Assembly (NCBI GenBank): GCA_963777605.1
Contig: CAVZRV010000010.1
Coordinates: 480,001 to 544,000, forward strand
Direction of reading: 5' to 3'
Length of the DNA: 64,000 nt
Source: an uncultured Acidobacteriota bacterium
GTDB lineage: Bacteria > Acidobacteriota > UBA6911 > RPQK01 > JAPXNP01
Shown here: one piece after another, positions 7,168-57,465 of the stretch
Numbering within the stretch: position 1 is the stretch's first letter
Layout of the letters: every line of letters starts with the position of its first letter
Notes under the pieces: generated by a model
Told to the model about the DNA's origin: nothing
Seen by the model: only the letters and a program-made list of their open reading frames with translations
The model's database searches: none
Made by a program: the position numbers and the translations under genes

Positions 7168-7221
7168 AATCCATCCGTTGGTTCAGGCTCGGGAATCTGC
7201 ACTCGCGACCCGTCGCCAGAT

Positions 7222-8355: not shown

Positions 8356-8429
8356 CGGCCTGTTCCTCTCCAGACTACCCTTGCCAAAACTCATCGTCGT
8401 CGCATGTACTTTCAGTGTGAAACGAAGGC

Positions 8430-9645
8430 TCAGACTTCTCCGCCCGGCAGGGAGTCCAAATCGACTCTTCGCCCTTCGCTGGCGGCGAGGTAGGCCGCGT
8501 AAACCACTCTCACGACCTGAAGGCCCAACTGACCGTCGGTGAGCGGCTCCCGGTCCTGCGATCACGTCCTCCAGGAACGACCGACACATCCCCCAGTGCC
8601 CTGAAGTCCAATCCTCGTCAGGCATCGGAGTGGACCATCCGGCGCTGGTTTCCAGCTTCTCCAGCAGGTACTGCCCGCGAAATGTCTCGAGGGCCGGTGA
8701 ATATGCCTGAACCAGGTTGTTTGGACTCAGGTTGCAGACAAACCGCGCGTTGGAACCGAAAATTTCAATCCGGCTTTCCATCCCGCCGAGCATGGTGTCG
8801 GAAGCCCAGACCAGCCCCCGAGCCCCGTCTTCAAACGTAACAATCGCCGATCCCCAGTTCTCGACATCCTTCCAGCCCCGTGCAAACCAGACTTTTTCAC
8901 CCCGGTTCAGCGATTCGATCCGGCTCAAATCGCCGACTTCGGCGGTTACGGAAGCTGGCCTGATCGGCTTGCCGTCACGGATCTTTCCCTCCAGGGCCTT
9001 CAGGTAGATCATCGTGCCGACGGGGTGGGCTCCCAGCCTGAGCAGAGCCCCTCCACCCGTGTAGCGCCAGATCTTGGAGAACTGGGAGTGGGATCCGCTG
9101 TGGCACTCGCCCCCACGCATCTCGACGATCGTCCCGCCGCTTTGGCTCAAGAGGCCGGCCACTTTACGAACCGACGGTGCATAGAGCCAGTTCTCTCCGT
9201 ACATCAGTTTGATCCCTCCGGCCCGGGCAGCTTCGACCATTGCGGCTGCGTCACGCACCACCACGTCGAGCATGTGGCGCCGATCCTGGCTTGAGATATC
9301 TTCGTCGGTGCAGTCGGCCGGAAGGTCCTGCCCGACGTATGCAGTCAGCGGCTTGGTGCAGACGACGTGTTTTCCAGCGGCTGCCGCAGCTTCTGTCATC
9401 GGCCGGTGAAGGTGATTCGGTACGCAAAGGTCCACCAGTTGGATGTCCGGCATCTCCAGCAACTCGCGAAAGTCGGTCGTCCACTTGGGAATGCCATGCC
9501 GGGAGGAATACTCCCGCGCCCGCTCGTCCGACACGTCGGCGACCGCCCGAATCGGCTGCTCCAGGCCGCCCGCCTTGGCGTAGCATCGGGCCCGGGTCTC
9601 CGCCAGAAAGCCTGCTCCAATGATCCCAACTCCGATCTGCTTCAT
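8430..9645 (-). CDS. Gfo/Idh/MocA-family oxidoreductase (apparent +1 frameshift near 8556)
   Basis: IIGAGFLA Rossmann motif, PNHLH, CTKPL, GGGALL. The family-typical C-terminus DREPLTDGQLGLQVVRVVYAAYLAASEGRRV lies in the shifted frame, ending at TGA 8430-8432. Confidence 0.85.
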
Positions 9646-31644: not shown

Positions 31645-32424
31645 TCAGGCGCTGGTTCCAGTGGCGTCATAGCGCCTCTCGAGCGATTCGAGGTATTGGC
31701 TCTCACCGCCCAGAACATCCATTGTGCGGTTGACGAGATCATCCAACAGCGTTCGCTCCGCCCGCAGGTCGTCGGCACCGGAAGATTCCGTCCCAGTTCC
31801 AGCGTTCTCTCCGCGCCGCCAGATCCGCGTAAGCACGGCAGCCGCCCGCTTCAATATCGCGGTGTGCATCTGGAATACGCCCGAGAATATCCCCCAGATT
31901 GGAGAGCGATTCGTTTCCCTGAGGACCATCCGCATCCGCGCCCTTATGTGACGCGCCCGGGCGTCGGGAATAACCGGGTCCTGTTCGACGGATCTCAGCG
32001 CGTAGCGCAGAAGATAGCCCTCATGAAAGGCCCTGGAAGCCCAGTCGGCGGCTTGCTTGGCGGCAAGGAAGAAGAGGATCTTTCGGAAGATCCCCTTGAG
32101 GAGAGCCCCCAGAAAGCGTATCGGCAGGATGACGGCGAGAAAGAAGAACTTGTAGAGGCATGCCCCCGCCTGCATCCCGTCCCGTTCACCGGCAAGAATG
32201 CGCAGCCCGGTACGGCTCGCTACTGCCCTCCGCTCTCGCAGGAGTTCCACGAACATGCGTCGCCGGACCCAGTTGAATATCCAGTCATCCAGAAGCGGAA
32301 TCGGAACCAGGGCGGCAGCACCTGCCAGGAGACCGTAGAATACGATCCTTTTGAGGCCGTCCTGGGACCGCCGCAAATCGGGTAATCTTCTATTTACGCT
32401 CGGAGTCGCGCTTCCATCATTCAC
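31645..32424 (-). CDS. Hypothetical membrane-associated protein (DUF697/EcsC-like), last gene of the ATP-grasp operon
   Basis: GLLAGAAALVPIPLLDD motif plus a second hydrophobic segment; GTGA start/stop overlap with the amidohydrolase at 32421-32424. Confidence 0.65.
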   Translation of the reverse strand: MNDGSATPSVNRRLPDLRRSQDGLKRIVFYGLLAGAAALVPIPLLDDWIFNWVRRRMFVELLRERRAVASRTGLRILAGERDGMQAGACLYKFFFLAVILPIRFLGALLKGIFRKILFFLAAKQAADWASRAFHEGYLLRYALRSVEQDPVIPDARARHIRARMRMVLRETNRSPIWGIFSGVFQMHTAILKRAAAVLTRIWRRGENAGTGTESSGADDLRAERTLLDDLVNRTMDVLGGESQYLESLERRYDATGTSA

Positions 32425-33131
32425 TGGAACACCCAGATCAACGAATTCCTCAGTCCTTCCGCAAGCACTCGCCGGAATTCCGGCATGTCGGGCATCCGTC
32501 TCAGCAGCCAATCCTGGTTGACCTCGATTTCGATTCCCACGTACCTGTTACCCAGTTCCTTCCTGAGGGTGACCACGAACCCGTCTGCGGTCCCTCGGTA
32601 AGGATAATTCCGCCGGAGTCTGACCGGCAGGGCCCCTAACCGCAAGGAGTCGATCCAGGCATCGGCCAGTCTCTTTTCCAGCGGGCGACTCGGATCGTAA
32701 AGCACTCCAATATCAGCATTTCGGACCACTCCGTTCAGCTCCGGAACGAATGAATGGACAGAGACGTGAACTACCTGTCCCAGCCTCTCCTGGACTTCCC
32801 GGAGGATTGCCTCCACGCGAGACCGGTAGGGTACGTAGTAGATGCCTGAAACTCTTTCTTTGAGACTTTCGGGCAGCGGTCGGGTCACCTCAGAGAAGCG
32901 CCCCCGGTGTCGAAGAGACCGGTTAAGGTCGACCAGAAGTCGAGTCGTTCTCGCGATCAGACAAGAGCAGGACAGCGCCGAACTGAGCGACTCAGCCAAC
33001 TCCGCCGCACCCGGATCAAAGCCACGGTGGCTCTCAAGGAGCTCCCTTCTGCCCGCGAACAGATATTGAAATTCTTCAGGAACTTCGTTGCCACCGTGTT
33101 CACAGCTAATGACGAGGGGCAAGTCGCGCAT
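32421..33131 (-). CDS. N-formylglutamate amidohydrolase family protein
   Basis: ISCEHGGN, HRGFDPGA, RLLVDLNR, SVHSF.P, NYPY, IEIEVNQ. Confidence 0.9.
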   Translation of the reverse strand: MRDLPLVISCEHGGNEVPEEFQYLFAGRRELLESHRGFDPGAAELAESLSSALSCSCLIARTTRLLVDLNRSLRHRGRFSEVTRPLPESLKERVSGIYYVPYRSRVEAILREVQERLGQVVHVSVHSFVPELNGVVRNADIGVLYDPSRPLEKRLADAWIDSLRLGALPVRLRRNYPYRGTADGFVVTLRKELGNRYVGIEIEVNQDWLLRRMPDMPEFRRVLAEGLRNSLIWVFQ

Positions 33132-34356
33132 CGAAGAGTTCTCCCTTTGCCAGGGCAGTGGCAAGCCGGAGGTACACTCGGGAGATCGCCTCGCGGCTGC
33201 TGTTGCCTGCGAGCGCGGCGACGATGCGCTCTGCGAGGGTCTCCACTGAGATCAGGGCCCCGATTTCTTCAGCCGCAGCGTTATCCAGCCGGTCGGCGAC
33301 TCCTTCGAATATGGCTCTCCATAAATCGCGGGCCCTCAATGGCCCTTTGTCGCCCACGCCAAGGGCTTCCAGGTAGTCAATATTTCCGATCACATACTGC
33401 CCGCCCTGCCGAACAGTTCCTTCGAGAATCTCCAGAAGCGGTGGAATCTCCCAATCCTGCTGGGAAGCCCAGGTTGACCAACGCTCCTCCACCAGACCCT
33501 CCAGGAGCTCCACGATCAGACGATAGACGGCCAGGTCCGCCGTCGGGGACTCCTGGATATCGAGGACGCGAATCTCGATCGCGTTGCGGTCAAACCTCGG
33601 GATTGCTCCCCGCGAGTTGAGCCATTCGAACTGCAGAATCCCTTCCGGGTCATGGGGGGAGATGTCCCGGTAGATTCGAGACAGTATCCGGTTTTGATAC
33701 TCGTCGGGAGTAAACACGGCCTCCGGAATCACCAAACCGGTGATCGAGGGAACCCGTCGCTGATTCGTCCGGTAAAAGGAGAGGCGGTTGTCCGCCAACC
33801 CGGTGACTCTGCCGTCCACAATCGGAGAACTCGCCGCCAGGGCCGGAATGATGGGCAGCGCCAGACGAATCGCCGCATGGAGGCGACCAAACTCCTGGTC
33901 GTCCCCGAAAGGGAGGTTCATGTGAAGGCTTTGCAGGTTCGACCATCCGTGGCCTTGGCATCCAAAAATCCGGTTGTACGATTCATATACCGGGCTGTAC
34001 TCATGCGGCCACAGGGAGGCCTCCACAATGGGATTCATCCAGGGGTGCATAGCAGTCGGCATAAGACAGCAACCCCATTCCGCCAGAATCGAATTTGCCT
34101 GTTCAACCCCCGCCTGGAACTGAGCGTCCAGACCGTCCAGCGTTGCAGAGGGCCCGTTGGTCTTCAACTCAATAACATGAAGCACGAGTTCGTTGCACCA
34201 GGCGACCGGGCCAAGTTCGACTTCGGACACGTAACTGCCGGCTACCGCCTTCAGCAGTTCGTCGGAAACAGGGGCCACCGAGAGTTCGGCGCTGCGGACG
34301 ATCATGTACTCGAGTTCGACACCAAAGCCCTGGAAAAGGCCGAGGGGAGACGTCAA
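33106..34356 (-). CDS. Glutamate--cysteine ligase family 2 (GCS2) carboxylate-amine ligase
   Basis: FGVELEY, ELVLHVIELKT, LHMNL, ASSP, NSRG..RFDRNAIEIRVLD. Confidence 0.9.
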   Translation of the reverse strand: MTSPLGLFQGFGVELEYMIVRSAELSVAPVSDELLKAVAGSYVSEVELGPVAWCNELVLHVIELKTNGPSATLDGLDAQFQAGVEQANSILAEWGCCLMPTAMHPWMNPIVEASLWPHEYSPVYESYNRIFGCQGHGWSNLQSLHMNLPFGDDQEFGRLHAAIRLALPIIPALAASSPIVDGRVTGLADNRLSFYRTNQRRVPSITGLVIPEAVFTPDEYQNRILSRIYRDISPHDPEGILQFEWLNSRGAIPRFDRNAIEIRVLDIQESPTADLAVYRLIVELLEGLVEERWSTWASQQDWEIPPLLEILEGTVRQGGQYVIGNIDYLEALGVGDKGPLRARDLWRAIFEGVADRLDNAAAEEIGALISVETLAERIVAALAGNSSREAISRVYLRLATALAKGELFDARLAPRH

Positions 34357-35819
34357 GAGGCGACTCCTTTAAGGCGGTCCAACCGGGAACTGAAAACGGA
34401 CAGGATTTTCGTGTAAAGCTGATCCTTGAGAAGCGCATCTTCGTAGCCAGCATCCACACTCGGGTTGTCGTTCACCTCGATAACAACAGCTTTGTCGCCG
34501 ATCTCCTTCAAGTCGACTCCATAGAATCCGTCACCTATCAAACCAGCCGCTTTCAGGGCCGTGCCCACCACGAGTGCCGGGGCCTCTTCAATTGGCACCG
34601 CTTCAACCCGACCGTACTCACTCCGACCCTCTCCCGCAGATTTGATTATTTGCCAGTGCCTGCGTGCCATATGATACCGGCAGACATAGATCGGTTCGCG
34701 GTTGATGATCCCGACACGCCAGTCGAAGGCGGTGGGCACGAATTCCTGAGCAATTACAAGTTCAGATCGGTCGAGGAGGCGATCCAGCTGCGTCTGCAGT
34801 TCTTGGGGCGTTTCCGCCTTGGAGACCCCTTGTGAAAATGAACTGTCCGGCTGCTTGAGAATACAGGGGAACCCAAGGGCGTCGGCAACCTGCCCGGGAG
34901 CGCTGCGGCTGACCACGAGGGTACGCGGCACTGGAATACCATGCCGAACAAGCAACTCGGCCAGGTAAACCTTGTTCGTACATCGCAGGATTGAATCCGG
35001 GTCGTCAATCACGACGAGGCCTTCAGCGCTTGCTCGTCTGGAGAAACGATACGTGTAGTGATTGACGTTGGTGGTGTCTCGAATGAAGAGTGCGTCGAAC
35101 TCTGCCAAACGCCCGAAGTCCTCCCGGGTGATTATCTCAACCGAAAAGCCAAGATCCTCGGCAGCTGAGACAAAGCGGCGGATCGCTCTCTCGTTGGAGG
35201 CGGTAGGACCCGCAGATGGGTCCCAGAGAATGGCAAGGTCGTAACGGGTCGCCGTCTTTCGCGGAACGCGAATTCCCGGTGCGGAGAGGTATTCCTGGGC
35301 GGCGTCTGCTACAAATGAACGATGGTCCTGCGGCACTTCGCTGACCCCGATCAGGCTCAGATCCCTGAGTTCCCACTCGTCACTGAATCGGAACTTGGCC
35401 CGCAGCAAAGGAGCCTCGAACAATCGGAACAAGCTCCTGCTCAGTCGGTCATAACGCTTGGCAACGTTCTTGCCGAAGTAAATGCTCAAAACGAATTCGG
35501 ACGACCGGATCGGTCTCAGACTTCGCTGTATGATTTCATCAAGATCGTCGGAAATCGCCCGGAAAATTGCCTGTGTCTTCAAGTCCTGAATCGTGGCGAC
35601 GGTGGGGATCGGCTTGTGGCCCCGGGCCTGCGCCAGTAGGGAGACGTAGTAGCCCAGACTCTGGTACCGGTAGCTCCGACACAGGTTGAACACCTTTAAC
35701 CGACGGACACGGCTAAATTCAGGGTTGGTCAGGTAGGATCGGGCCGAGATGATCTCAACACCGGGGATATCCAAGGTCCAGTTTGCCGGGTTTTGAACTA
35801 CCAGGATCGCATTGCTCAC
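34353..35819 (-). CDS. RimK-family ATP-grasp ligase with N-terminal RLAN domain
   Basis: RLAN motif NLCRSYRYQSLGYYVSLLAQARGH; ATP-grasp CTNKVY, ILKQPDSSFSQGV, QEF..FDWRV, GVDLKE..IEVNDNP. Confidence 0.92.
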   Translation of the reverse strand: MSNAILVVQNPANWTLDIPGVEIISARSYLTNPEFSRVRRLKVFNLCRSYRYQSLGYYVSLLAQARGHKPIPTVATIQDLKTQAIFRAISDDLDEIIQRSLRPIRSSEFVLSIYFGKNVAKRYDRLSRSLFRLFEAPLLRAKFRFSDEWELRDLSLIGVSEVPQDHRSFVADAAQEYLSAPGIRVPRKTATRYDLAILWDPSAGPTASNERAIRRFVSAAEDLGFSVEIITREDFGRLAEFDALFIRDTTNVNHYTYRFSRRASAEGLVVIDDPDSILRCTNKVYLAELLVRHGIPVPRTLVVSRSAPGQVADALGFPCILKQPDSSFSQGVSKAETPQELQTQLDRLLDRSELVIAQEFVPTAFDWRVGIINREPIYVCRYHMARRHWQIIKSAGEGRSEYGRVEAVPIEEAPALVVGTALKAAGLIGDGFYGVDLKEIGDKAVVIEVNDNPSVDAGYEDALLKDQLYTKILSVFSSRLDRLKGVAS

Positions 35820-35822
35820 CGC

Positions 35823-36548
35823 CTACGGCACCTCCCGACGGGTGATCACGAGGAGGTTCGCGTCGTAAGTGAGCGTCCCCAGCAGGATTGAAGAAATCAC
35901 CCGATTGATATCCATGTCGTAGAACTGCGAGTTGAAAAGCGGGTTAGGATGAAGCGGATCAGCGATACGCACCTTATGCTGTGAACCGAGAAAGCTGCAA
36001 AGAATCACAAAGTGGCCGGCCGGTTCCCCGCGGACATCGTCATAGTCATCATCGATCTCACGCGAACAGTTGTACAGATAGGTGGCACTCAAGCCAGTCA
36101 AAATCGGAGTACCTTGGGACAGAATCCGTTGCAGCAAGTCAGCTGTCAAGTCCTCGAATCGAACAATTCCTCCCTCTTCAAGGAACGACTGGTACTCCGA
36201 CATGATCTTTCTTAGCTTTCGCCCCGACTTGACCCTCTCCTGCTGACCCAGTTTATCAATCAGCCGAACCGAAAGGTCGCTGAACCAGGTGGGGTCAAAA
36301 AGCTGCAGATTGTACGTGTAAATTGTGGCGTCAAACCCTGACCGAAGGGCGTGATTACCCAGGGTAACAGCAACGGTTCCTCCACCCTCCAACTGTTCAA
36401 TCTCGTGGATCAATTCGCCCAGTTCGACTTCCTTCCCGTAGTGCCCATAAATTCCGTGAAGGCAGGTCGGGCCGCACGTCCGATCGTCCGGTTGGGGCAG
36501 GATTTCCAGGTGGATTTGGTGATAGAAGGTGCTTGGCTTCGAGGACAA
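35823..36548 (-). CDS. Papain-like peptidase C39-like (DUF3335-related) protein
   Basis: QPDDRTCGPTCL (Gln/Cys), GHFVIL (His), IADP (Asp). TTG 36548 follows a GGGAG RBS; the ORF track extends to 36635. Confidence 0.85.
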   Translation of the reverse strand: MSSKPSTFYHQIHLEILPQPDDRTCGPTCLHGIYGHYGKEVELGELIHEIEQLEGGGTVAVTLGNHALRSGFDATIYTYNLQLFDPTWFSDLSVRLIDKLGQQERVKSGRKLRKIMSEYQSFLEEGGIVRFEDLTADLLQRILSQGTPILTGLSATYLYNCSREIDDDYDDVRGEPAGHFVILCSFLGSQHKVRIADPLHPNPLFNSQFYDMDINRVISSILLGTLTYDANLLVITRREVP

Positions 36549-36573
36549 ACCGATACTCCCAGTGGGATTATAG

Positions 36574-36790
36574 ACCGAAACTGGCGACCGCCGCGCGGGC
36601 GTAATGGACTTTCGGCTCCGGTTTCGGAGCTTCAACGAGGTGCTGGATGGTGACGGGAAGGCAGTGCTTGCGAACGCGAGCGTGCAACTGATGTTCGGGT
36701 ACGCTCTCTACTTGCCGGAACTGAACAGCGCAGCGGACCTCCTCCGGACTGCAGACCAACGCATGTATGAAGACAAAATGAAAGGTCGGC
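36574..36790 (+). pseudogene. C-terminal remnant of a GGDEF (diguanylate cyclase) domain
   Basis: FGYALY....AADLLRTADQRMYEDK matches the GGDEF C-terminal helix; in-frame TAG at 36571-36573 upstream and no GG[DE]EF motif. Confidence 0.6.
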
Positions 36791-36966
36791 TTGCCCCGCT
36801 AGCCCGGGGGCGTCCTTCCAGCGGGCTCGTCCGACCTGCGTTGACGGCCTCAGAGTCCCTCATCTATGCTGGTCAGTGTAGATCAGACCAAGTGCCCCGG
36901 TAACGGAGCTTCGCTGATGAGGTGCCTGACCGTTACACCGGGCGGCTTGGGAACGGAGCGCGAGTC

Positions 36967-38251
36967 GTGGATTCGAAGTCGAAGGGAGAGGAACCCCGGC
37001 CGGCCGGGTGGCACACCCGTCGAGAGTTTCTGGAGGCACTGGTTCCGGCTACCTGTGCCACCTGTCTCGCTACGATGTTGCCCGGACACGTCTTGGCCAG
37101 GGCGGCGACGAAGTCTGGATCGACACCCGAAACAATCTTCGAGATCCTCAGAAACGCGCCCGAGGCACGTTACTGGATTGCCCCCGGAGATGCCCCGTCC
37201 TCCTGCCGCGGCTGTCACGACCCGGGCGACGGCATCAATCTTCAGACGGCCCACGATCACAAGGAGCATCCCGTGCAGTGCCAACTCTGTGCACGCCAGT
37301 GCCTGATCTTCGAAGGTGAACGCGGGATGTGTCGATCCCGCATGAACGTCGGAGGCAAACTGAGAAGCCTGGTTTACGGCCGCCCCGCCGCAGTCCACGT
37401 TGATCCCATTGAGAAGAAGCCCTTCTACCACTTCCTTCCCGGCGCGATGGCCTTCTCTCTGGCCACAACCGGGTGTCCGCTTCGCTGCAAATTCTGTCAG
37501 AACTGGGAACTTTCCCAGTCCAGCCCCGAGGACTACAGCGTGTCTTTCACCCCGCCCGACCTGGTCGTTTCGGCCGCCAGGGATCGAAAGACCCCGGTGA
37601 TCGCGTTCACCTACAACGAACCGACTGTGTTCATTGAGTACCTCACGGACATCGCCCGGAAGGCCCGCAAGAGAGGAATGGCATCCGTCCTGGTGAGCTG
37701 CGGGTTCATGGCTGAAGAACCGCTTGCCGAGATGTGCGAAGTCCTCGACGGCATCAAGATCGACCTGAAGGGTTACGGCGAGGACTTTTACCGGGAGGTC
37801 TGCGGTGCCCATCTGGGACCGGTCCTGCGCTCGATCAAGCAGATCTCCCAGAGTGGAGTCCACCTCGAGATCGTTAACCTGGTGGTGCCAACCCTGAATG
37901 ACTCGGAACCGATGCTTCGGGAGCTTTCCAACTGGATCGTCGGCGAATTGGGGCCCGACGTACCGATCCATTTCACCCGGTTTCACCCCGACTATCGCCT
38001 GCTGAACCTGCCTCCGACCCCGAGTCTCGACACTGGAAAGGGCTTACGGGATCGCCCGCGCAGCCGGCATTCACTATCCCTACGTGGGCAACGTCCCCGG
38101 GCACCGCGGAGATAACACTTACTGTCCGCGATGCGGGACAGAACTGATCACCCGGAGCGGGTTCTTCGTCGTCGAATCGAAGATCAAGAACGGGCGCTGC
38201 TCCTCCTGCGACTTTCCGATCGCCGGAGTCTGGACCCGAGAAAGTCAGTGA
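36967..38251 (+). CDS. amrS: AmmeMemoRadiSam radical SAM enzyme with Tat-like leader (apparent +1 frameshift near 38023)
   Basis: CQLCARQC......G.C, VDPIEKKPFYHF.PG, CPLRCKFCQNW (CxxxCxxC), TYNEP, TRFHP. C-terminal YVGNVPGH..TYCPRC...CSSC..IAGVW lies in the shifted frame. The ORF track starts at 36922. Confidence 0.92.
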
Positions 38252-38254
38252 AAC

Positions 38255-39820
38255 ATGCGTCACCTCTGGCTGTGCGCTCTTGCCTTATCCCTCGTGCTCA
38301 CGGCTGAATTCTGCACTGCCGCCGACGATGATATCCGTCCATCGGCGGTTTCCGGTCAGTTCTACCCGGCAGATCCTGCAGTACTCAGGGAAACCGTCGA
38401 TTCGTTCCTGTCGGCAAGCCACAAGAAAGTCGGTGGCAAACCATTTCTCATCGTCTGCCCCCACGCAGGCTACGCCTATTCGGGCAAGGTCGCAGCCGCG
38501 GCATTCAAAGAGGCGGCGGGAAACCGTTACGACCTGGTCATCATCCTCGGCACCAACCACACCACGGCGGGGTTCAACAAGGCAGCGGTCTTCGTCGGCG
38601 ACGGGTTTGAGACGCCGCTCGGGGTTGCGAAGGTCGATCGTTCGGCCGCCTCGCAACTGCTCGATTCTGACTCCATCTTCACCGAGTTCGCCGCGGTTCA
38701 CCGGGCCGAGCACTCCATCGAGGTGCAAGTGCCTTTCATCCAGGTACTTTTTCCCGGCGTTCCGATCGTTCCAATCGTGGTATCGACTACTGATCTTTCC
38801 GACTGCGAGCACATCGGAAGAGAACTTGCCCGGCTTTCAAGAGACCGGTCGGTTTTGATCGTGGCGAGTTCCGATCTTTCCCACTACCCCCGATACCAAG
38901 ACGCAGAGAAGGTCGATCACAAGACCCTCGATCTGATCGTTCAGGAAGACGTCAAGGCACTCCATCGTTACCTGACGCGGATTCCGGGAAGCGCTCCGTC
39001 GCTGGTTACCGGCGCCTGCGGGGAAGGGCCGATCCTGGCGGGGATATGTGCAGCCCGCACACTCGGAATCGAACACGGCATCCAGATAGCGTACGCCAAC
39101 TCGGGGGATCTCCTCCCCGGTAGCCGCGACCGGGTTGTCGGCTACGGAGCAGTGGCGTTCCTTTACAGTGCCCCGGCCGGTAGTACCCCGGCCGTCGATC
39201 CTGCCGTTCCGCCAGCGCCTTCTGATGGGCGAAACAAACCAGGGCCGTCCAGCGAAACGCTCGACAGCAACACGAAGCGCGCTCTCCTGCGACTGGCTCG
39301 CCGGGCCATTACCGAGTTCGTCACGAGCGGACGAGACTTCGAGGAAATGACCGGGAAAACGAAGATTTCGTTTCGGGCGGGCGCGTTCGTCACTCTTCGC
39401 GAGAACGGCCGATTGAGAGGTTGCATCGGCCGGCTGGAGCCCGACCTGCCGCTCGAGGAAGTCATCGCCCGGTACGCAGTCTACGCAGCAACGCAGGATC
39501 CCCGCTTCAACCCGGTCAGGCCGGCCGAAGTGAAGCAGTTGGATATCGAGATCTCAGTGCTCAGCACTCCCAGGCCGGTGCCCGGTTTCCAGGCCATCCG
39601 AATCGGTCGGGACGGTGTAGTGCTGACGAAGGACGGGCACTCAGCCACGTTCCTTCCCCAGGTCGCCGACGAACAGCACTGGAGTCGTAACGAAATGCTC
39701 TCCAACCTCTGTCTGAAGGCCGGACTCGAGGAAAACTGCTGGACCGAGGGTGCCCGATTCGAAACTTACCAGGCAACCGTGTTCAGCGAAACCGATCTTG
39801 CGCCCGAGACGCCACGTTGA
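38255..39820 (+). CDS. amrB: AmmeMemoRadiSam protein B (Memo) - protein A (AMMECR1) fusion with signal peptide
   Basis: PHAGYAYSG, LGTNH, EHSIEVQVPF, SSDLSHY, ACG, VVGY; Pro/Ala linker; FVTL...LRGCIG, DPRF, FLPQV, LCLKAG. N-terminus MRHLWLCALALSLVLTAEFCTA. Confidence 0.93.
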   Translation: MRHLWLCALALSLVLTAEFCTAADDDIRPSAVSGQFYPADPAVLRETVDSFLSASHKKVGGKPFLIVCPHAGYAYSGKVAAAAFKEAAGNRYDLVIILGTNHTTAGFNKAAVFVGDGFETPLGVAKVDRSAASQLLDSDSIFTEFAAVHRAEHSIEVQVPFIQVLFPGVPIVPIVVSTTDLSDCEHIGRELARLSRDRSVLIVASSDLSHYPRYQDAEKVDHKTLDLIVQEDVKALHRYLTRIPGSAPSLVTGACGEGPILAGICAARTLGIEHGIQIAYANSGDLLPGSRDRVVGYGAVAFLYSAPAGSTPAVDPAVPPAPSDGRNKPGPSSETLDSNTKRALLRLARRAITEFVTSGRDFEEMTGKTKISFRAGAFVTLRENGRLRGCIGRLEPDLPLEEVIARYAVYAATQDPRFNPVRPAEVKQLDIEISVLSTPRPVPGFQAIRIGRDGVVLTKDGHSATFLPQVADEQHWSRNEMLSNLCLKAGLEENCWTEGARFETYQATVFSETDLAPETPR

Positions 39821-41955
39821 AAATTGAACTTTTCGTGATCGGCCTGGTATCCATTCTCGGCCAGGTCGTGATCCTGCGAGAGCTCAACGTAGCCTTCTTC
39901 GGCATCGAGCTGATTTACATCCTTGCGATCGGGAGTTGGTTGCTTGGAACCACGGCAGGAGCAATCATTTTCGGCCGCAGACTTCGACCTCCCCGAAGCG
40001 GGATCGAGGTAATGCTTCTTGCAGCCGCATTGCTCGTCCCCGCGGAAGTGGTCTTTCTCCGCGGGCACCGGCTCCTCTTCGGGGGAGTTGCCGGGGCTTA
40101 CCTCTCCTACGAACACCAACTCGCCTCGCTGATCCTGGCAACCTGCCCTGTCGGACTCGTGCTTGGTCTCCTCTTTCAGTGGGCAGCCAAGCGATACTGT
40201 GCTGACACGGGCAGCCTGGGCCGAGCCTATGCGATCGAGAGCCTGGGAGGGCTCGTCGGAGGGGTTGTCTCGTTCGGCTCTCTCTCGCTCACAATCCCCA
40301 ACCTCGCAGTGGCGCTGATCTGCGGCCTGGCGGCCGCTGCTCCGTTGGTTTTGTGCCGGAGGAACCGGGTCGTGGTGTTGGCCGGAGGATTGGCGATCTC
40401 CCTGTTTGGCCTGGCTCTCTGGTTCTCACCAACCCTCGACCTGGGCCTGACCGCTCTCAACCACCCCAACCTCGTTTCATCCCTTGACACTCCTTACGGC
40501 CGGATCACGGTTTGTCGGGAAGGTGGCCAGGTGACGGTATTCAAAGACGACGTCTACGTCTACGAAAGCCAGGAAAACTCGGCGGAAGAACTGGTTCACT
40601 TGGCAGCTCTCCAGGTAGCAGAGCCACGCCGGATCCTGGTAATTGGTGGAGGGGTTTTTGGCCTCGTTCGTGAGGCTTCAAGGTACCGGCCGGAGACTCT
40701 CGACTCGTTCGAGATCAATGCGAAGATGGAGCAATTCGTCGGCAAGTTCCTCATGCCGGATCAGAGTTCCGCCAGGGTTACACCGACCTCCCGGCTGGAG
40801 GCCGGGGAACCTCGCCAACTTCTTCGCCAGTCCGGCCGGTACGATCTCATCATTTTGGGAATCCCGGATCCCGACTCGGGGCAGGACAATCGCTTCTTTA
40901 CCCAGGAATTCTTTCAGTTGGTCCGGGAGCACCTCACCCAGGAGGGAGTCCTGGCCTTCCGGCTCGGCACTACCCCAAACGTCTTCACCCAGGCACGGCT
41001 TGCCCGGGACGGAAGCATCGGGCGTGCCCTCGCCGATGTCTTTCCCGATACCATCGCCCTGCCGGCAACCTCAACCATTGTCGTCGCCGGCCTGCGGCCC
41101 CTGAACCGGGACACTACCCTGCTCGAAGCTCGGTGGCAGACACGAAACATCAAAACCCGGCTCGTTTCCGTTCCCTACATCGACTACCTCTTCAACGGAG
41201 ATCGTTTTCCGGCGTTGAACCGTCAACTGTTTGAAACGGACGTAACGCCGAACCGGGACCTGGCGCCGGTTTGTTTTCGTTATTCGACCTGGATTTGGCT
41301 CTCGCGGATTTTCCCCTCCCTGACCAACCGCCTGCCGACCGGGCCCGGGTCTGCGGCATGGACTATTGCCGCAATGTTCTGTCTCGCCGCAGGTTGTCTG
41401 GCCTGGATGCTTGCCCGCAAGTCCCGGAGGCTCCAGGCGATTTTGCTCATGACCCTGGCAGCGGCCGCCGGGATGTTCCTCGAAACCCTCCTTCTCCTCT
41501 ACTACGAGACCCGGCACGGAGTACTCTACCGGGACCTGGGCCTGCTCCTGATGATGTTCATGCTTGGCCTCGCAGCCGGGGCCGCATCCCTCTCCTCCTG
41601 GCTCGGCAACCAGTCTCGGATCGGGAGGCGCTGGGGAGTCGTCCTGTCGGCCGGCTTCCTCTTGCTCTCGCTCACCTACATCCTCTCGCTCAGAATCGCT
41701 TCGGGAGCTTCGCTCGAACTCGTTGCCCTGCAACTCTTTGGAGCAGGCCTGATGGTGGCGGGCGTCTTCATCTACTGCAGCCGGAAAGGTGTCCAGGATG
41801 AGAGAAGTGTCGTGTCGCCGCTGTACGCCGCCGACTTGCTGGGGGGCTTTGCCGCGACCTTGATCGGAAGCCTTTTACTGCTTCCGTTCCTGGGTTTCGT
41901 GCTGTCTGGCTGGGTCGTCTTCGGAGTCGCTCTGGCGACGCTGCTATTCGTCTGA
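39817..41955 (+). CDS. Polytopic membrane protein with central spermidine-synthase-like SAM-binding domain
   Basis: About 7 N-terminal TMs (AYAIESLGGLVGG), DTPYGRI, ILVIGGG, YDLIILGIPDP, NRFFTQEFF, NRDLAP, about 6 C-terminal TMs (LYAADLLGG); TTGA overlap with amrBA. Confidence 0.85.
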   Translation: MKIELFVIGLVSILGQVVILRELNVAFFGIELIYILAIGSWLLGTTAGAIIFGRRLRPPRSGIEVMLLAAALLVPAEVVFLRGHRLLFGGVAGAYLSYEHQLASLILATCPVGLVLGLLFQWAAKRYCADTGSLGRAYAIESLGGLVGGVVSFGSLSLTIPNLAVALICGLAAAAPLVLCRRNRVVVLAGGLAISLFGLALWFSPTLDLGLTALNHPNLVSSLDTPYGRITVCREGGQVTVFKDDVYVYESQENSAEELVHLAALQVAEPRRILVIGGGVFGLVREASRYRPETLDSFEINAKMEQFVGKFLMPDQSSARVTPTSRLEAGEPRQLLRQSGRYDLIILGIPDPDSGQDNRFFTQEFFQLVREHLTQEGVLAFRLGTTPNVFTQARLARDGSIGRALADVFPDTIALPATSTIVVAGLRPLNRDTTLLEARWQTRNIKTRLVSVPYIDYLFNGDRFPALNRQLFETDVTPNRDLAPVCFRYSTWIWLSRIFPSLTNRLPTGPGSAAWTIAAMFCLAAGCLAWMLARKSRRLQAILLMTLAAAAGMFLETLLLLYYETRHGVLYRDLGLLLMMFMLGLAAGAASLSSWLGNQSRIGRRWGVVLSAGFLLLSLTYILSLRIASGASLELVALQLFGAGLMVAGVFIYCSRKGVQDERSVVSPLYAADLLGGFAATLIGSLLLLPFLGFVLSGWVVFGVALATLLFV

Positions 41956-42700: not shown

Positions 42701-42961
42701 GGCGCACTCCCGGCCGGGCCGCCACCAAGAACCAAAGTGGAGCAGAACTGGGGATCTTCTGCATGAGTTGCTCGGATGAGCCGGGCCTTTGCATTGATGA
42801 TAGCTCCCTTTCACGACCGCGGTCAACCACTCCAACTCCTCGTCGTTCTCTCTACTCTTACTGACTTGGCACAAGGTTTCACTACTGGAGGATCCGAAAT
42901 TCTGTTAGCTTATGCGCTAACTCAAAACCAGTGTGATCCCATTCATCGTAGGAGAAGGTGT

Positions 42962-43421
42962 ATGTGGAAGGAATTCAAGAAGTTCGCCGCCAAAGGTAAC
43001 GTCATCGACATGGCCGTGGGCATCATCATTGGGGCTGCGTTCGGCTCCGTAGTCAAGTCCCTGGTCGCCGACGTCATCATGCCTCCAATCGGCCTGCTGC
43101 TGGGTAATGTCGACTTCACGAACATATTCCTCACGCTCAAAGAGGGCGCAACTCCGGGTCCTTACGTCACCCTCGCCGATGCGAGTCGAGGCCGGCGCGG
43201 TCACCGTCAACCTCGGAGTCTTCGTCAACGTGGTCCTGTCGTTCCTGATCGTGGCATTAGCCGTCTTCGTGCTGGTGAAAAACGTCAACCAGCTCAAATC
43301 GCGTTTTGAGGAGGAAAAGGTGGCTGCGGCGCCGACGACCAAGGACTGCCCCCAGTGCTTCACGGCAATCCCGATCAAGGCGACCCGCTGCCCGAATTGC
43401 ACTTCGCAACTTTCTGGTTAG
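42962..43421 (+). CDS. mscL: Large-conductance mechanosensitive channel with C-terminal zinc ribbon (apparent +1 frameshift near 43184)
   Basis: [24 protein letters not shown]...[10 protein letters not shown]2 (G.FVN....FLIVA) and KDCPQC...ATRCPNCTS lie in the shifted frame. Confidence 0.93.
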
Positions 43422-54837: not shown

Positions 54838-56280
54838 TCAGTTGTCGGAGCCGGGTCCAAAGACACTTGCCGAGAAACGGAATATCACGGTGTCGGAACG
54901 CTCCCACGCCGCAGGCTCGAGACCAGCCTTGGTGCAGGTCTGACGGAGTAACGCAAGTCGGTCCCAGCCATGCTCCGGGGCCACCTGCGGGAGAAGCAGT
55001 CCGCGCCGGGAGCCTTGCTCTATCATCAGTCCGTCACGGCCGATTTCGATTTCGTCGATGCGCCGCACGATCCTGAGCGGAGAGAGAATCGATATCTCAT
55101 AGTCGATCTCCTCCAACTCAGACTCCGTAACCGGCGGAAATCTCGGGTCGAGCGTCGCCGCACTGATCGCAGCATTCCTGACCGCGTCGGCCAGTGGCTC
55201 GCGGGCCACGATGCTGCCGATGCAACCGCGCAAAACCCCTCCGAACCGAAGAGTTACAAAGACGGCGGCCGGCTCTTCCAGATCGGGCAAATCTGGTCGT
55301 TCCACGGCCGAGCGGGTTCCCTCCACCGCGTCATCCAGGGCCTGGCGACAGATTTCGAGAAGTTGTCGGCGGACAGCCGGGCCGGGCCCGAAATCAGGAT
55401 CCCGCAACCCTTCGGTCTCGACGAATGCGGCTGAAAGGTAGCCGACGACTCCATCCCTCCGAAACGGAGGGACGTCACCCGAACTCGAGTAATTGAGGAT
55501 TTCGGCACGGTTACCGCCTGCCTGCTGTGCCGCAATCATGGCGGCGGCAACAGGTCCTGCTCCGCATGCCTCGGACTCCCCACCCTCCACATTCTGAAGA
55601 AGGCTGAGGTAATCCCATTTTCGGATCATGCTGATCACGCGATTGTCCAGATCACGGGCCTCGGAGTAAGGGTGATAGTGGGAGAGGTCGGAACTTGCCA
55701 CGAGCACGCTGTCACCGTCCATCAGATCGGCCAGTGCGATTCCCAATTTCCGGCAGGTGGACCAGTCCTGGCTGCCGAGCACAATGGGAACGAGCAAAAA
55801 GCTGTCCATAATCGCCTGCAGAAACGGCAACTGTACCTCGAGGGCGTGCTCGCCCCTGCCGCCCCTTCCTGTCACATGGCCCCGCTCCGAAACAGCGCCG
55901 GCACCGGCCGCCGCCAGCCGTCCAGCGAACTCACTGTCAACCGGAATCTTTCCCAACGGCGTCAAATAGTGGGAACCCGAAAAGATTGAAGCTCCGTCGA
56001 AAGCGTCCACGTGACACGGAGCAATCACCACCACTCGACGCGGCTTTTGCCGTGCCAGCAGTTTGAACCCGTGAGCGGCAACTTGTCCCGAGTAGGGATA
56101 CCCGGCGTGGGGAGAGACGACGGCAATGACCCTCCCCAGGTTCTCGGGAACCGAAGCATCGCTCAGGTAGCCGTCCACCTGGTCCTTCAGGTCGCTGGGA
56201 TCGTCCGGGTAGAACAGGCCTGCGACTGCCGGCTCCCGGACCAGCCCGCGTCGCGTGCGGGAGAAATCAATTCCGTACAC
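54838..56280 (-). CDS. amrB: Second AmmeMemoRadiSam protein B (Memo) - protein A (AMMECR1) fusion, no signal peptide
   Basis: REPAVAGLFYP, PHAGYPYSG, APCH, EHALEVQLPF, SSDLSHY, ACG, VVGY; FVTL...LRGCIG, DPRF, LLPQV, KAG. GTG 56280 follows GGAGGAGG. Confidence 0.92.
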   Translation of the reverse strand: MYGIDFSRTRRGLVREPAVAGLFYPDDPSDLKDQVDGYLSDASVPENLGRVIAVVSPHAGYPYSGQVAAHGFKLLARQKPRRVVVIAPCHVDAFDGASIFSGSHYLTPLGKIPVDSEFAGRLAAAGAGAVSERGHVTGRGGRGEHALEVQLPFLQAIMDSFLLVPIVLGSQDWSTCRKLGIALADLMDGDSVLVASSDLSHYHPYSEARDLDNRVISMIRKWDYLSLLQNVEGGESEACGAGPVAAAMIAAQQAGGNRAEILNYSSSGDVPPFRRDGVVGYLSAAFVETEGLRDPDFGPGPAVRRQLLEICRQALDDAVEGTRSAVERPDLPDLEEPAAVFVTLRFGGVLRGCIGSIVAREPLADAVRNAAISAATLDPRFPPVTESELEEIDYEISILSPLRIVRRIDEIEIGRDGLMIEQGSRRGLLLPQVAPEHGWDRLALLRQTCTKAGLEPAAWERSDTVIFRFSASVFGPGSDN

Positions 56281-56439
56281 GGTAACACCTCCTCCAGACC
56301 GCTCTTTGAAAAATTGCAAGCGATTCGGTAGGCGTCCCCATTCTAACTCGCGCCGGGCCATTCAGAAACCGTGCCCGATGATCTTTTTCACTTCCTTCTG
56401 CTAGAATCAACGCCAACGGGTGAAGAAAAGGTAAACATC

Positions 56440-57465
56440 ATGCAAGGACGAGGTACTCCGGAGAACCCTGCCAACCGCTTTGACCGGCTCCATCTCGAGT
56501 GGGACGAAGGTTACCAGCCGAGTGCGGAAACCCACTTCCTGGTTGACCGAACCGGCAGAATCATCACTTCGAACGACAGTCCGGACATCGGCTACGACTT
56601 CAGCCTGAATCCTTATCGGGGTTGCGAGCACGGCTGCATTTACTGCTACGCCCGCCCTACTCACGAATACCTCGGTTATTCCTCCGGCCTCGACTTTGAA
56701 ACCCGGATCCTGGTCAAAACCGAAGCTCCGACGCTGCTCCGCCGCGAGCTCGACTCGCCGCGCTGGTCCCCCGCCGTAGTGGCGCTCTCCGGGGTAACCG
56801 ATCCCTATCAGCCGGCGGAACGCCGACTCCGGTTAACCCGCGGCTGCCTCGAAGTGCTTGCGGAATTCCGCAACCCGGTCACGATTATCACCAAGAATCA
56901 TCTCATCACCCGGGACCTTGACCTGCTCGAAGAACTCTCTCGTTTCAATGGCGTCAGCGCCCGGGTTTCGGTGACCACGCTGAACGCCGAGCTGCACCGA
57001 GTCATGGAACCTCGCACATCCAGTCCTCGCCGCCGCCTCGACGCGATCGAACAACTTGCGCGCCACGGGATACCGGTTGGCGTCATGGTGGCACCGGTAA
57101 TTCCCGGTCTGAATGATCACGAGATCCCCGAGATCCTGAAGCAAGCCCGACTCCGGGGAGCGATCGCCGCTCACTTCCAGATCGTGCGACTGCCCTATTC
57201 CGTCAAGGACCTCTTCATCTCGTGGCTGCGGGAGCGCTTCCCCGATCGCGCCGACCGGGTAATCAACCGAATCCTGGAGGTCCGAGCCGGACGTCTGAAT
57301 GACTCCCGCTTCTTTCATCGCATGCGGGGAGAGGGGGAGTATGCGGGGCAGATTCAGCAACTCTTCGAGAGGTCCCATCGCCGGGAAGCGTTCCTGGACC
57401 ACCTGCCGCCACTCTCCTGCGCTTCATTTCGACGCCAGGGTCAGCTCAGGCTCCCCTGGGATTGA
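56440..57465 (+). CDS. PA0069/Rv2578c-family radical SAM protein (spore photoproduct lyase-like)
   Basis: N.SPDI...SLNPYRGCEHGCIYCYARPTHEYLG, TDPYQP.E, EPRT..P..RL, APVIPGLND. Confidence 0.93.
   Translation: MQGRGTPENPANRFDRLHLEWDEGYQPSAETHFLVDRTGRIITSNDSPDIGYDFSLNPYRGCEHGCIYCYARPTHEYLGYSSGLDFETRILVKTEAPTLLRRELDSPRWSPAVVALSGVTDPYQPAERRLRLTRGCLEVLAEFRNPVTIITKNHLITRDLDLLEELSRFNGVSARVSVTTLNAELHRVMEPRTSSPRRRLDAIEQLARHGIPVGVMVAPVIPGLNDHEIPEILKQARLRGAIAAHFQIVRLPYSVKDLFISWLRERFPDRADRVINRILEVRAGRLNDSRFFHRMRGEGEYAGQIQQLFERSHRREAFLDHLPPLSCASFRRQGQLRLPWD

Follow-up and report, generated by a model that had tools for sequence, protein, structure and literature searches.

The closest described system is AmmeMemoRadiSam, in which a radical SAM protein (AmrS) accompanies the Memo and AMMECR1 proteins (AmrB and AmrA). 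Memo and AMMECR1 are conserved from bacteria to humans, and we know of no function established for the canonical system. The dependence of radical SAM enzymes on SAM, on a low-potential reductant and on clusters that are sensitive to oxygen is the reason why they are taken to be cytoplasmic; neither SAM nor low-potential reductants are known to occur in the periplasm. Fe-S and other cofactor proteins exported by the Tat pathway form a general class. A literature search of limited coverage turned up no account of a radical SAM enzyme among Tat substrates, and likewise, with incomplete coverage, no published description of an exported operon with an MFS partner.

The window, the whole stretch of 64,000 nucleotides that was analyzed, carries amrS, a gene for a Memo-AMMECR1 fusion (amrBA) and a membrane protein gene (gene 3) in a row on the + strand (Table 1). 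The tight coupling of the three genes described in an earlier sequence-only reading was recovered: the TGA stop of amrS (38249–38251) is followed by AAC and the amrBA ATG (38255), leaving a 3-nt gap, and the TTG start of gene 3 shares TTGA with the amrBA stop (39817–39820). A GGAG sequence lies 8 nt upstream of the GTG start of amrS (36967). The promoter-like site further upstream is no evidence of function, because one such site was found against 0.9 expected by chance. The operon features recur in dozens of orthologous loci, beyond chance. We lean slightly towards the reading that this locus encodes an AmmeMemoRadiSam variant acting on the outer side of the cytoplasmic membrane, and a frameshift in amrS most probably arose during assembly.

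Table 1. Features of the amrS–amrBA–gene 3 locus and of a paralogous gene (window coordinates)
Feature	Positions	Strand	Remarks
Promoter-like site	36841–36870	+	TTGACG, 18-nt spacer, TATGCT; upstream of amrS; weak evidence
amrS, frame A	36967–38022	+	352 codons; Tat leader, CxxCH insert, N-terminal C-x2-C-x3-C..C, radical SAM core
Twin-arginine motif, hydrophobic region, A-R-A	37015–37107	+	AmrS N-terminus; T-R-R-E-F-L-E (R18, R19)
CxxCH motif	37204–37218	+	C80-R-G-C83-H84, in an insert of ~25 residues
Radical SAM cluster motif	37474–37497	+	C-P-L-R-C-K-F-C (CX3CX2C), residues 170–177
Frameshift site	38022–38024	+	One extra base, CCG[A]GTC, near 38023
amrS, frame B	38024–38251	+	75 codons and stop; C-terminal part, CPRC and CSSC, zinc-ribbon-like pair
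amrBA	38255–39820	+	Memo-AMMECR1 fusion, 521 aa (PF01875, PF01871); Memo residues 30–299, AMMECR1 residues 345–510
AmrBA signal peptide	38255–38323	+	Residues 1 to ~23
Gene 3	39817–41955	+	PF01564 match
Gene 3, N-terminal seven TM helices	39817–40422	+	Residues 2–202; MFS N-lobe and TM7
Gene 3, spermidine-synthase-like Rossmann domain	40423–41352	+	Residues 203–512; predicted extracytoplasmic
Gene 3, C-terminal seven TM helices	41353–41955	+	Residues 513–711; TM8 and MFS C-lobe
Leaderless amrBA paralogue	54838–56361		Same genome

As in the canonical system, the genes are adjacent, the proteins score above the cut-offs of TIGR04337, TIGR04336 and TIGR04335, and the CX3CX2C motif, the N-terminal Cys motifs and LRGCIG are kept. 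Frame A of amrS matched TIGR04337 with 288.4 bits (cut-off 220) over profile positions 5–262, as well as PF04055, and frame B matched the same TIGR04337 profile with 61.7 bits over positions 264–336. The Cys residues of CX3CX2C are invariant in the AmrS alignment A3. AmrBA scored 236.3 bits against TIGR04336 (cut-off 26) and 176.1 bits against TIGR04335 (cut-off 99). In contrast to the canonical system, AmrS of the window carries a Tat leader and a CxxCH insert, AmrBA carries a Sec/lipoprotein leader, and the linked third gene encodes an MFS-Rossmann fusion; moreover, its clade is separate from the canonical clade in the AmrS tree, and the genome also holds a canonical set without leaders. Among solved structures, the AmrS core is closest to pyruvate formate-lyase activating enzyme and other glycyl-radical activases (8fo0, 3c8f; E 5e-7). 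However, the NCBIfam matches of AmrS to these families are weak and far under their cut-offs, no glycyl-radical enzyme is found near amrS, and the activases have neither the extra N-terminal Cys motif nor the C-terminal zinc-ribbon-like part nor the export leader.

The N-terminus of AmrS begins with M-D-S-K and runs into H-T-R-R-E-F-L-E, followed by a hydrophobic stretch and A-R-A, so that the TRREFL motif and the two elements behind it are all present, as had been claimed. The full Tat consensus is followed in the leader by an A/G-rich stretch of mild hydrophobicity, and both are kept across phyla. The motif [ST]-R-R-x-F-L was observed in 108 of the 117 aligned close AmrS homologues, the other nine being truncated at the N-terminus. 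A strict Tat test was passed by 62 of 67 assessable syntenic orthologues, and three further syntenic AmrS proteins (L028, L054 and L063) are of the RR type by eye. AmrS therefore resembles the Tat-exported Fe-S proteins both in its consensus twin-arginine leader and in its need for an Fe-S cluster before export, and TatC is encoded in the genome (PF00902, 220 bits).

For AmrBA, which starts with MRHLWLCALALSLVLTAEFCTAADD, a hydrophobic leader was seen in 63 of 64 orthologues, many of them lipobox-like, in agreement with the Sec-like signal peptide that had been proposed for the fusion. Both leaders are thus conserved among the orthologues, whereas they are missing from the canonical paralogues of the same genome, a leaderless AmrS (650 bits) and a leaderless AmrBA. 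A FastTree tree was built from 142 AmrS cores. The 27 rows labelled Tat all fell into one group of 40 rows (support 85), and leaders were lacking throughout the 88 rows that make up the other half of the tree.

The CxxCH insert lies between A-R-Y-W and the canonical C-x-L-C-x3-C motif of AmrS. Its two Cys residues and its His are invariant in all 117 close homologues, and His98 is present in 106 of them. The insert is missing from the canonical AmrS paralogue of the genome, and CxxCH is missing from 20 of the 67 syntenic orthologues, namely L005, L056 (which has a sequence gap) and 18 of the Smithella/Syntrophales type. Near these 18 loci, no DUF362 or DsbD_2 gene was found, except for a weak DUF362 match in L016. 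In the subclade of the window, electrons may enter the enzyme through this insert, which could hold haem c or be a metal site of another kind; because 20 orthologues lack CxxCH, it cannot be an essential entry point.

The chances seem to us evenly divided as to whether C80-x-x-C83-H84, together with His98, forms a structural or redox metal site (C2H2-type Zn or Fe) or instead binds haem c covalently. A C2H2-type pattern is likewise compatible with the spacing C-x2-C-x12-14-H-x-H, the motif is dispensable in view of the orthologues that lack it, and the Tat leader is at odds with the usual attachment of haem, which takes place on unfolded apoproteins exported by Sec. In contrast, the invariance of CxxCH among the close homologues of a predicted periplasmic protein and the presence of cytochrome c (Ccm-type) maturation genes in the genome argue for haem. 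The insert segment was modelled at lower confidence (pLDDT 73–79) and may be flexible, which also argues against a metal site.

The sequence-only reading had treated amrS as a single frame from 36967 to 38251, and this does not hold: frame A continues to a stop at 38115, and the rest of the protein is encoded in frame B. Owing to the 1-nt insertion, AmrS of the window has no intact ORF, and the deposited gene call is a shortened product of 382 aa. One base fewer is present at this site in all five same-family relatives, and the orthologue consensus across the break reads PPTP-V-A-T-L-E-R-A. Of 182 near-invariant columns, AmrS has a deviant residue at only two, the part behind the break included (rank 84 of 104), and frame B is open as far as its natural stop. 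In addition, mscL, 5 kb from amrS, is likewise split between two frames, suggesting indel errors in the assembly. Because the relatives lack the base, the protein is otherwise conserved and mscL is also frameshifted, the insertion in amrS is, as judged from these sequences, most likely an assembly error.

It is unlikely, in our view, that the insertion is real and that the operon copy of the window, and of the window only, is inactive, with the system in decay and AmrS lacking ~75 C-terminal residues, among them the zinc-ribbon-like part. Besides the frameshift and the 382-aa gene call, such decay would account for the state of the other two proteins, which are the most deviant rows of their respective alignments: gene 3 deviates at 22 of 139 and AmrBA at 18 of 146 near-invariant columns (rank 1 in both cases), and the Rossmann domain has F, E, P and F at four near-invariant positions where the orthologues have E/D281, D331, E387 and W390. 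These deviations could reflect relaxed constraint. However, the window represents a lone lineage with ~40% identity to all rows, which alone raises the count, and the rows that follow in rank deviate at 19 and 15 columns. The conservation of AmrS, the open downstream frame and the split mscL all argue against inactivity as well.

The membrane gene is conserved beside amrS and amrBA, as it should be if the three act together in the way first suggested. Of 68 loci from about ten phyla that could be assessed, with 3.3 kb or more of upstream sequence (another 15 were too short for this), 60 have amrS, amrBA and the MFS gene in collinear order, four have amrBA only and four have neither gene collinear. 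No fourth conserved gene was found around these loci. The linkage of gene 3 to amrBA and amrS survives changes in gene order and strand and reaches archaeal MAGs, and the sole MFS-SpeE gene of the genome adjoins the leader-bearing pair. Three signs against an exported operon were looked for, namely leaders that are unconserved or non-exporting, start sites downstream of the leaders and a membrane gene that is not linked; at the level of sequence, none was seen.

Some relatives deviate from this arrangement. In four loci (L146, L152, L157 and L159), a leaderless AmrS adjoins the MFS-SpeE gene; an AmrBA of the lipoprotein type is encoded there as well in L146, L157 and L159, and L152 has no amrBA match. 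These loci complicate an all-periplasmic reading, because they indicate that AmrS need not be outside the cytoplasm for function, and they suggest a small-molecule substrate that passes through the membrane via the MFS protein. In other relatives, AmrS has a Sec-like hydrophobic N-terminus in place of RR, which is hard to reconcile with the export of a folded Fe-S enzyme.

A cytoplasmic-side AmrS, with an RR leader that does not export or is a mere tether, would modify a small molecule, which the MFS protein would then export to AmrBA and the outward domain. The leaderless loci fit this arrangement, as do L001, L003, L019 and L070, in which the MFS gene is accompanied only by amrBA or its Memo part, and the cytoplasm supplies both SAM and reductant. 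Nevertheless, we judge it improbable, since the leader shows the full Tat consensus with the A/G-rich region across phyla, and an N-in signal anchor would still leave the enzyme outside. Furthermore, related clades have a Tat-signal DUF362 or fusions to modules of the transmembrane-electron-transfer or extracytoplasmic type. The proposal of the sequence-only reading that the variant acts in the periplasm or at the membrane stands, as far as leaders, synteny and the outward domain can tell, with the leaderless relatives as a complication, whereas we can only infer the export itself, an envelope substrate and a supply of SAM by the membrane protein.

For gene 3, a protein of about 13 TM helices with a spermidine-synthase-like domain had been expected. 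The domain was confirmed (PF01564, 52.5 bits against a gathering score of 22.9), whereas 14 helices were predicted. The AF2 model (pLDDT 91.5, pTM 0.90) consists of seven helices, the domain and seven helices. The membrane part matched MFS transporters with Z 26–30 over ~330 residues (rmsd 3.3–3.9, VIA-align), and these matches span both lobes and include VMAT2 (9kqa; Z 29.6, 326 residues aligned), VAChT, SotB and NorA. No Pfam MFS family matched the sequence at E ≤ 0.01. Unlike the solved 12-helix MFS proteins and the 14-helix class (DHA2 type), gene 3 has a 310-residue enzyme-like domain between its central helices. The mean number of K and R residues in 65 sequences was 16.1 on the N-terminal side and 4.8 on the domain side. 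Together with the usual N-in/C-in topology of MFS proteins, this charge bias places the TM7-TM8 loop with the Rossmann domain outside the cytoplasm. The SAM-enzyme-like domain, whose topology was to be checked, is thus predicted to face outward.

The domain itself superimposed on Thermus 1UIR with Z 30 and an rmsd of 2.3 over 269 residues (Foldseek 2e-12). It shares with spermidine synthase (1UIR and E. coli 3O4F) the fold, the glycine loop, the ribose-binding acid and the adenine-side Asp, and GGG, E299 and D331-P-R are retained. In contrast, the first Asp of D-x-x-D-P, the catalytic Asp of SpeE, is replaced by G or A in 60 of 65 sequences of the family, and the catalytic Asp is missing from the window, where ILGIPDP aligns with IIDLTDP of 1UIR. 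The domain also has a hydrophobic residue at the Asp position of the GGGDG loop, in which it may resemble putrescine N-methyltransferase, a SAM user, and its predicted extracytoplasmic location is a further difference from spermidine synthase. The "fused MFS/spermidine synthase" family NF037959 and PRK03612 also join a spermidine-synthase-like domain to a membrane part of several helices, but gene 3 lies under both cut-offs (23.1 against 40 bits, over the SpeE part only, and 65.8 against 472 bits, respectively), and it differs from them in the insertion of the domain between TM7 and TM8 of a 14-helix MFS protein, in the loss of the catalytic Asp and in its tie to amrBA and amrS. The NCBIfam equivalogs were all under their cut-offs, with 66.6 against 260 bits for NF002010, 65.8 against 472 bits for NF002956 and 59.5 against 249.6 bits for TIGR00417.

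It is accordingly very unlikely that gene 3 encodes nothing more than a polyamine transporter or a membrane-bound polyamine aminopropyltransferase of the ordinary kind, transcribed together with the amr genes and mechanistically unlinked to them, because the PF01564 and weak SpeE matches, the polyamine aminopropyltransferase 1UIR as best solved relative of the domain, the amine transporters VMAT2 and VAChT as best MFS matches and the automatic cluster names ("polyamine aminopropyltransferase family") are outweighed by equivalog scores far under the cut-offs, by G or A at the catalytic position, by a predicted outward location where dcSAM is not expected and by a linkage to amrBA and amrS that outlasts changes in order and strand and extends to archaeal MAGs.

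In the exported arrangement that we favor, AmrS would acquire its Fe-S clusters and fold in the cytoplasm before Tat export, perhaps remaining tethered through its leader, and the Memo-AMMECR1 fusion would be exported by Sec, as a lipoprotein in many orthologues. Gene 3 would be a 14-helix MFS protein whose TM7-TM8 loop forms an outward, adenosyl-binding Rossmann domain derived from spermidine synthase. We infer that the MFS part carries a small cytoplasmic molecule across the membrane, which may be SAM, a SAM-derived compound or the substrate of the pathway, and the outward domain would bind this molecule or present it to AmrS and AmrBA. The partners of Memo and AMMECR1 are here few, membrane-bound and tightly linked, which offers a new handle on the function of these proteins, and each element is open to ordinary reporter, binding and transport assays.

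A wider claim is possible but more doubtful: a broad AmrS-type class, from at least ten bacterial phyla and some archaea, may work extracytoplasmically, with an electron supply particular to each subclade (the CxxCH insert, Tat-DUF362, or CcdA/DsbD-like or NosR-like membrane modules) and with the MFS protein exporting or presenting SAM or a SAM-derived molecule. A widespread, conserved exported clade with its own transporter-enzyme fusion and redox partners would overturn the assumption that radical SAM enzymes are cytoplasmic, and SAM or a related molecule would then have to be carried across the membrane. If true, this would be the first periplasmic radical SAM chemistry and the first dedicated route of an adenosyl cofactor out of the cell. 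In related AmrS clades, the partners are Tat-DUF362, DsbD/CcdA-like or NosR-like proteins, and some AmrS relatives are fused to DsbD_2, to FMN_bind and Fer4_5, to a beta-propeller or to CBM_11. Of another 80 loci, 41 have the MFS-SpeE gene close by, 19 a DUF362 protein with a Tat signal and 13 a protein of the DsbD_2 type.

The three genes of the operon were identified by family matches. The first, amrS, encodes the AmmeMemoRadiSam radical SAM enzyme (TIGR04337), the second, amrBA, a Memo-AMMECR1 fusion (TIGR04336, 236 bits; TIGR04335, 176 bits; PF01875 and PF01871), and the third, MFS-SpeE or gene 3, a membrane protein of 712 aa that contains a spermine/spermidine-synthase domain (PF01564, 52.5 bits). 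The tight packing noted from the sequence was confirmed, with a 3-nt gap between amrS and amrBA and a TTGA overlap between amrBA and gene 3, and GGAG lies 8 nt upstream of the amrS GTG start. Each part comes from a known family, and the whole is a variant of AmmeMemoRadiSam, a system of unknown function. That this variant is exported and works with an MFS partner is the overall reading that we slightly favour.

Features discussed in the text (window positions, unless a locus in another genome is named)
Feature	Coordinates	Strand	Basis or remark
Three-gene operon amrS-amrBA-gene 3	36967..41955	+	Family matches
amrS frame A	36967..38022	+	TIGR04337 positions 5-262, 288 bits; then stop at 38115
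amrS frame B	38024..38251	+	TIGR04337 positions 264-336, 61.7 bits
mscL, first part (ORF)	42776..43309	+	PF01741 positions 1-61
mscL, second part (ORF)	43107..43421	+	PF01741 positions 61-117
Divergent cluster upstream of amrS	32421..36635	-	C39-like peptidase at 35823..36635
RimK-like ATP-grasp protein with RLAN domain	34353..35819	-	Upstream of amrS
Further ORF of the divergent cluster	33106..34356	-	
Further ORF of the divergent cluster	32421..33164	-	
ORF of 1024 aa	44604..47678	-	N-terminal hydrophobic stretch, repeated domains
Leaderless Memo-AMMECR1 fusion	54838..56361	-	Same genome, inside the window
ORF divergently adjoining the leaderless fusion	56371..57465	+	Looks like a radical SAM protein by sequence
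DUF362 gene, locus L005	13094..14083	-	Upstream of CxxCH-less Tat-type AmrS
DUF362 gene, locus L097	5857..6867		One of 19 loci in L095-L174; upstream of CxxCH-less Tat-type AmrS

The amrS gene, which the sequence-only reading had taken as a single open frame (36967..38251), is divided between two frames, and the TIGR04337 match is split between them. The break consists of one extra base, CCG[A]GTC, at a site where the orthologue consensus reads PPTP-VATLERA, and the deposited annotation gives a truncated 382-aa product. This break is quite probably an indel error in the assembly, or at most a very recent mutation, because all same-family relatives found by DNA search (5/5) have one base fewer exactly at this point, the window AmrS with both parts joined deviates at 2 of 182 near-invariant columns (rank 84 of 104), the frame past the break is open as far as the natural stop, and mscL, 5 kb downstream on the + strand (42776..43421), is also split over two frames. 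The presence of this second apparent frameshift within 5 kb suggests indel errors in the assembly. At near-invariant columns, no rows of the respective alignments deviate more than the window MFS-SpeE (22/139) and AmrBA (18/146), which argues against a mere assembly error, but weakly so, because the window lineage stands alone among those rows and the rows that follow have 19 and 15 deviations, respectively. The word shares of the three public DNA runs are small (0.06-0.11), and no contig from them crosses 38023. No RNA run was among those listed. The AmrS fold was modelled on an intact orthologue (P0008). CCGA occurs in frame at six places in amrS.

The AmrS N-terminus reads M-D-S-K-S-K-G-E-E-P-R-P-A-G-W-H-T-R-R-E-F-L-E-A-L-V-P-A-T-C-A-T-C-L-A-T-M-L-P-G-H-V-L-A-R-A-A-T. 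The leaders that had been read on both AmrS and AmrBA are kept in their homologues. Among 117 aligned AmrS homologues shorter than 470 residues, from the best 120 of 7696, RR was found in 108, the remaining 9 being N-terminally truncated. In the loci found via the membrane gene (best 80 kept), a strict RR-plus-hydrophobic test, which left out three further loci cut by contig ends, was passed by 62 of the 67 assessable AmrS proteins; of the five failures, L028, L054, and L063 look RR-type on visual inspection, L038 is ambiguous, and L056 is interrupted by a sequence gap. A hydrophobic leader was also present in 63/64 AmrBA orthologues with a recognisable Memo start, many of these leaders finishing in a lipobox-like ..A-A-C-Q-A.. 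motif. The genome encodes TatC and cytochrome c maturation genes. Some AmrS relatives have a Sec-like hydrophobic N-terminus instead of a Tat leader, which is hard to square with export of a folded Fe-S enzyme.

The same genome encodes a second AmrS, which fits TIGR04337 far better (650 bits) and has neither the leader nor the CxxCH insert (C80-R-G-C83-H84) of the window's AmrS subclade. MFS-SpeE is a single gene in the genome and adjoins the leader-bearing amrS-amrBA pair. The leaderless Memo-AMMECR1 fusion in the window is 37% identical to the leader-bearing AmrBA, and the canonical AmrS that matches it is encoded outside the window, a further 54 kb along (G000:C10:590764-591810).

The coupling of the membrane gene to amrS-amrBA, as proposed from the sequence, extends to other genomes. 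A search with the membrane protein in one genome per species gave 6 loci, and a second search with their alignment found relatives in at least 577 of 599 candidate stretches, of which the best 80 were kept. Of the resulting 83 distinct loci, 15 were too short for assessment, whereas 68 carried ≥3.3 kb of sequence before the membrane gene. Among these 68 loci, amrS, amrBA, and the MFS gene are collinear on one strand in 60/68, amrBA occurs without amrS in 4/68 (L001, L003, L019, and L070), and neither amr gene is found in 3/68 (L004, L064, and L065). In L005, amrS and amrBA are both convergent and downstream of the membrane gene. The carriers in this set belong to the Desulfobacterota (Syntrophales, Smithella), Acidobacteriota, Latescibacterota, Calditrichota, KSB1, Eisenbacteria, Fibrobacterota, Marinimicrobia, and Bacteroidota, and the sole cultured strain among them is Desulfonema magnum. 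In this strain (L019, 4be13 chromosome, 5899..9127), the sequence before MFS-SpeE matches just the Memo part (query residues 1-303), and no amrS was found within 7 kb of the MFS-SpeE gene. When all flanking ORFs were clustered, a fourth conserved gene did not emerge; the remaining recurrent clusters were shadow frames of the three genes.

The AlphaFold2 model of gene 3, computed from 65 sequences (pLDDT 91.5, pTM 0.90), has seven helices followed by a mixed alpha/beta domain (about residues 219-480) and then another seven helices. The domain superimposes on the polyamine aminopropyltransferase 1UIR (Z 30.0, rmsd 2.3, 269 residues aligned; Foldseek E 2e-12), and the membrane part superimposes on MFS transporters over both halves (Z 26-30, each with about 330 residues), including VMAT2 (9kqa, Z 29.6), VAChT (8zmr, Z 28.4), SotB, NorA, and others. 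A Foldseek search of the PDB with the whole model returned spermidine synthases only, and the MFS fold was seen only by a wide VIA-align search. Because of this helix arrangement and the MFS superposition, gene 3 is, as modelled, a 14-helix MFS protein with an enzyme-like domain inserted between its two central helices. Since both termini of MFS transporters are cytoplasmic, the TM7-TM8 loop would lie outside. In the 65 sequences, the loops on the N-terminal side carry 16.1 K+R per protein compared to 4.8 in the short domain-side loops, a difference that is strongest in the C-terminal half (9.97 vs 1.48). The SpeE-like domain is thus predicted outside the cytoplasm by both the MFS topology and an independent charge bias.

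Retained in the domain are the GGG loop, the acid that follows strand 2 (E299, 60/65), and D-P-R (D331, 64/65), which we take, from the SpeE literature, to be the adenosyl-binding elements of the fold. Where the first Asp of the SpeE D-x-x-D-P motif would align, 60/65 sequences have G or A, and in 51/65 a hydrophobic residue stands in place of the Asp of GGGDG. A spermidine synthase is disfavoured, since this first Asp is replaced and every score of the SpeE equivalog models on gene 3 is far below the cut-off. Because of these scores, we read the domain as a putative adenosyl-ligand binder or a transferase of another kind. Protein Atlas names for this type are automatic, either "polyamine aminopropyltransferase family" or hypothetical. 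The complex prediction for the domain (203-512) with mature AmrBA (26-521) scored 0.00, which was counted neither way for binding.

Among representatives at 50% identity, the window's AmrS type collapses to essentially one (440 bits), the next scoring 329 bits. In a midpoint-rooted FastTree of 142 AmrS cores with leaders and inserts removed, all 27 Tat-labelled rows fall within one 40-row group (local support 85), and the CxxCH rows form one clade (support 99 together with its sister). In the other half of the tree, which includes the genome's own canonical AmrS, a leader was found in 0/88 rows. In the leader-bearing half, long relatives carry fusions to DsbD_2, to FMN_bind and Fer4_5 (NosR-like), to CBM_11, or to a beta-propeller, all domains that typify extracytoplasmic proteins or electron transfer across the membrane, and one relative is a signal-peptide-Memo-AMMECR1-AmrS triple fusion. 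The fusion proteins are P0189 (835 aa), P0129, P0137, P0146, P0131, and P0145.

In a second locus set around such relatives, all 600 candidate stretches encode relatives. Among the best 80 of 600, a distant MFS-SpeE (23-31% identity) is nearby on either strand in 41 loci, amrBA in 38, and a DsbD_2 protein, with or without FMN_bind and Fer4_5, in 13; archaeal MAGs with Tat-AmrS together with the MFS gene are included (L158 and L171). The linkage of MFS-SpeE to amrBA and amrS, kept despite changes in gene order and strand, argues for a functional tie. In 19 of these best 80 loci, a DUF362 gene lies just upstream of AmrS. Most of these DUF362 proteins have their own twin-arginine leader, 19/19 are beside a Tat-type AmrS, and CxxCH is present in 0/19. 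We know of no function for DUF362, and its context suggests an exported redox partner. These accessory redox proteins are consistent with an enzyme whose electrons must be delivered to the outer face.

The CxxCH motif is present in 117/117 of the nearest homologues of the window AmrS, and His98 in 106 (best 120 of 7696). However, the insert is absent in 20/67 syntenic orthologues (best 80 kept), namely 18 of the Smithella/Syntrophales type, L005, and L056, the last of which has a sequence gap. This makes the insert dispensable, and its role as an essential electron entry point was rejected. In these 20 loci, apart from L005, only L016 has DUF362 nearby (a weak match), and none has DsbD_2. The insert could bind haem c or another metal. 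Four loci have a leaderless AmrS beside the MFS gene, three of them (L146, L157, and L159) with a lipoprotein-type AmrBA and the fourth (L152) with no amrBA match. As judged from sequence, the constant core is the exported AmrBA plus the MFS-Rossmann protein. AmrS may thus act on either side of the membrane, which suggests a small substrate that crosses it.

Under the favoured reading of an exported variant, AmrS would be folded with its clusters and exported by Tat, and AmrBA would leave by Sec and, in many species, carry a lipid anchor. The MFS part would carry SAM, a molecule derived from SAM, or the substrate of the pathway to the outside, where the Rossmann domain would bind or present it, and electrons would reach AmrS via the CxxCH site or clade-specific partners. 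Gene identities, leader conservation, synteny, the MFS fold, and the charge bias are the observed part of this reading; transport, binding, electron flow, and substrate are inferred. Some radical SAM enzymes regenerate SAM as a cofactor; if this were so here, we speculate that little SAM supply would be needed. In the papers covered by full-text searches, neither a periplasmic or Tat-exported AmrS or radical SAM enzyme nor the linkage to MFS-SpeE was described. Burroughs et al., in J Biol Chem in 2019, reportedly covered the gene contexts of Memo, AMMECR1, and radical SAM, and may already note some of the present context.

The divergent cluster upstream of amrS was not kept beside the operon in other loci. 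The 1024-aa ORF downstream of mscL probably encodes a large secreted or surface protein.
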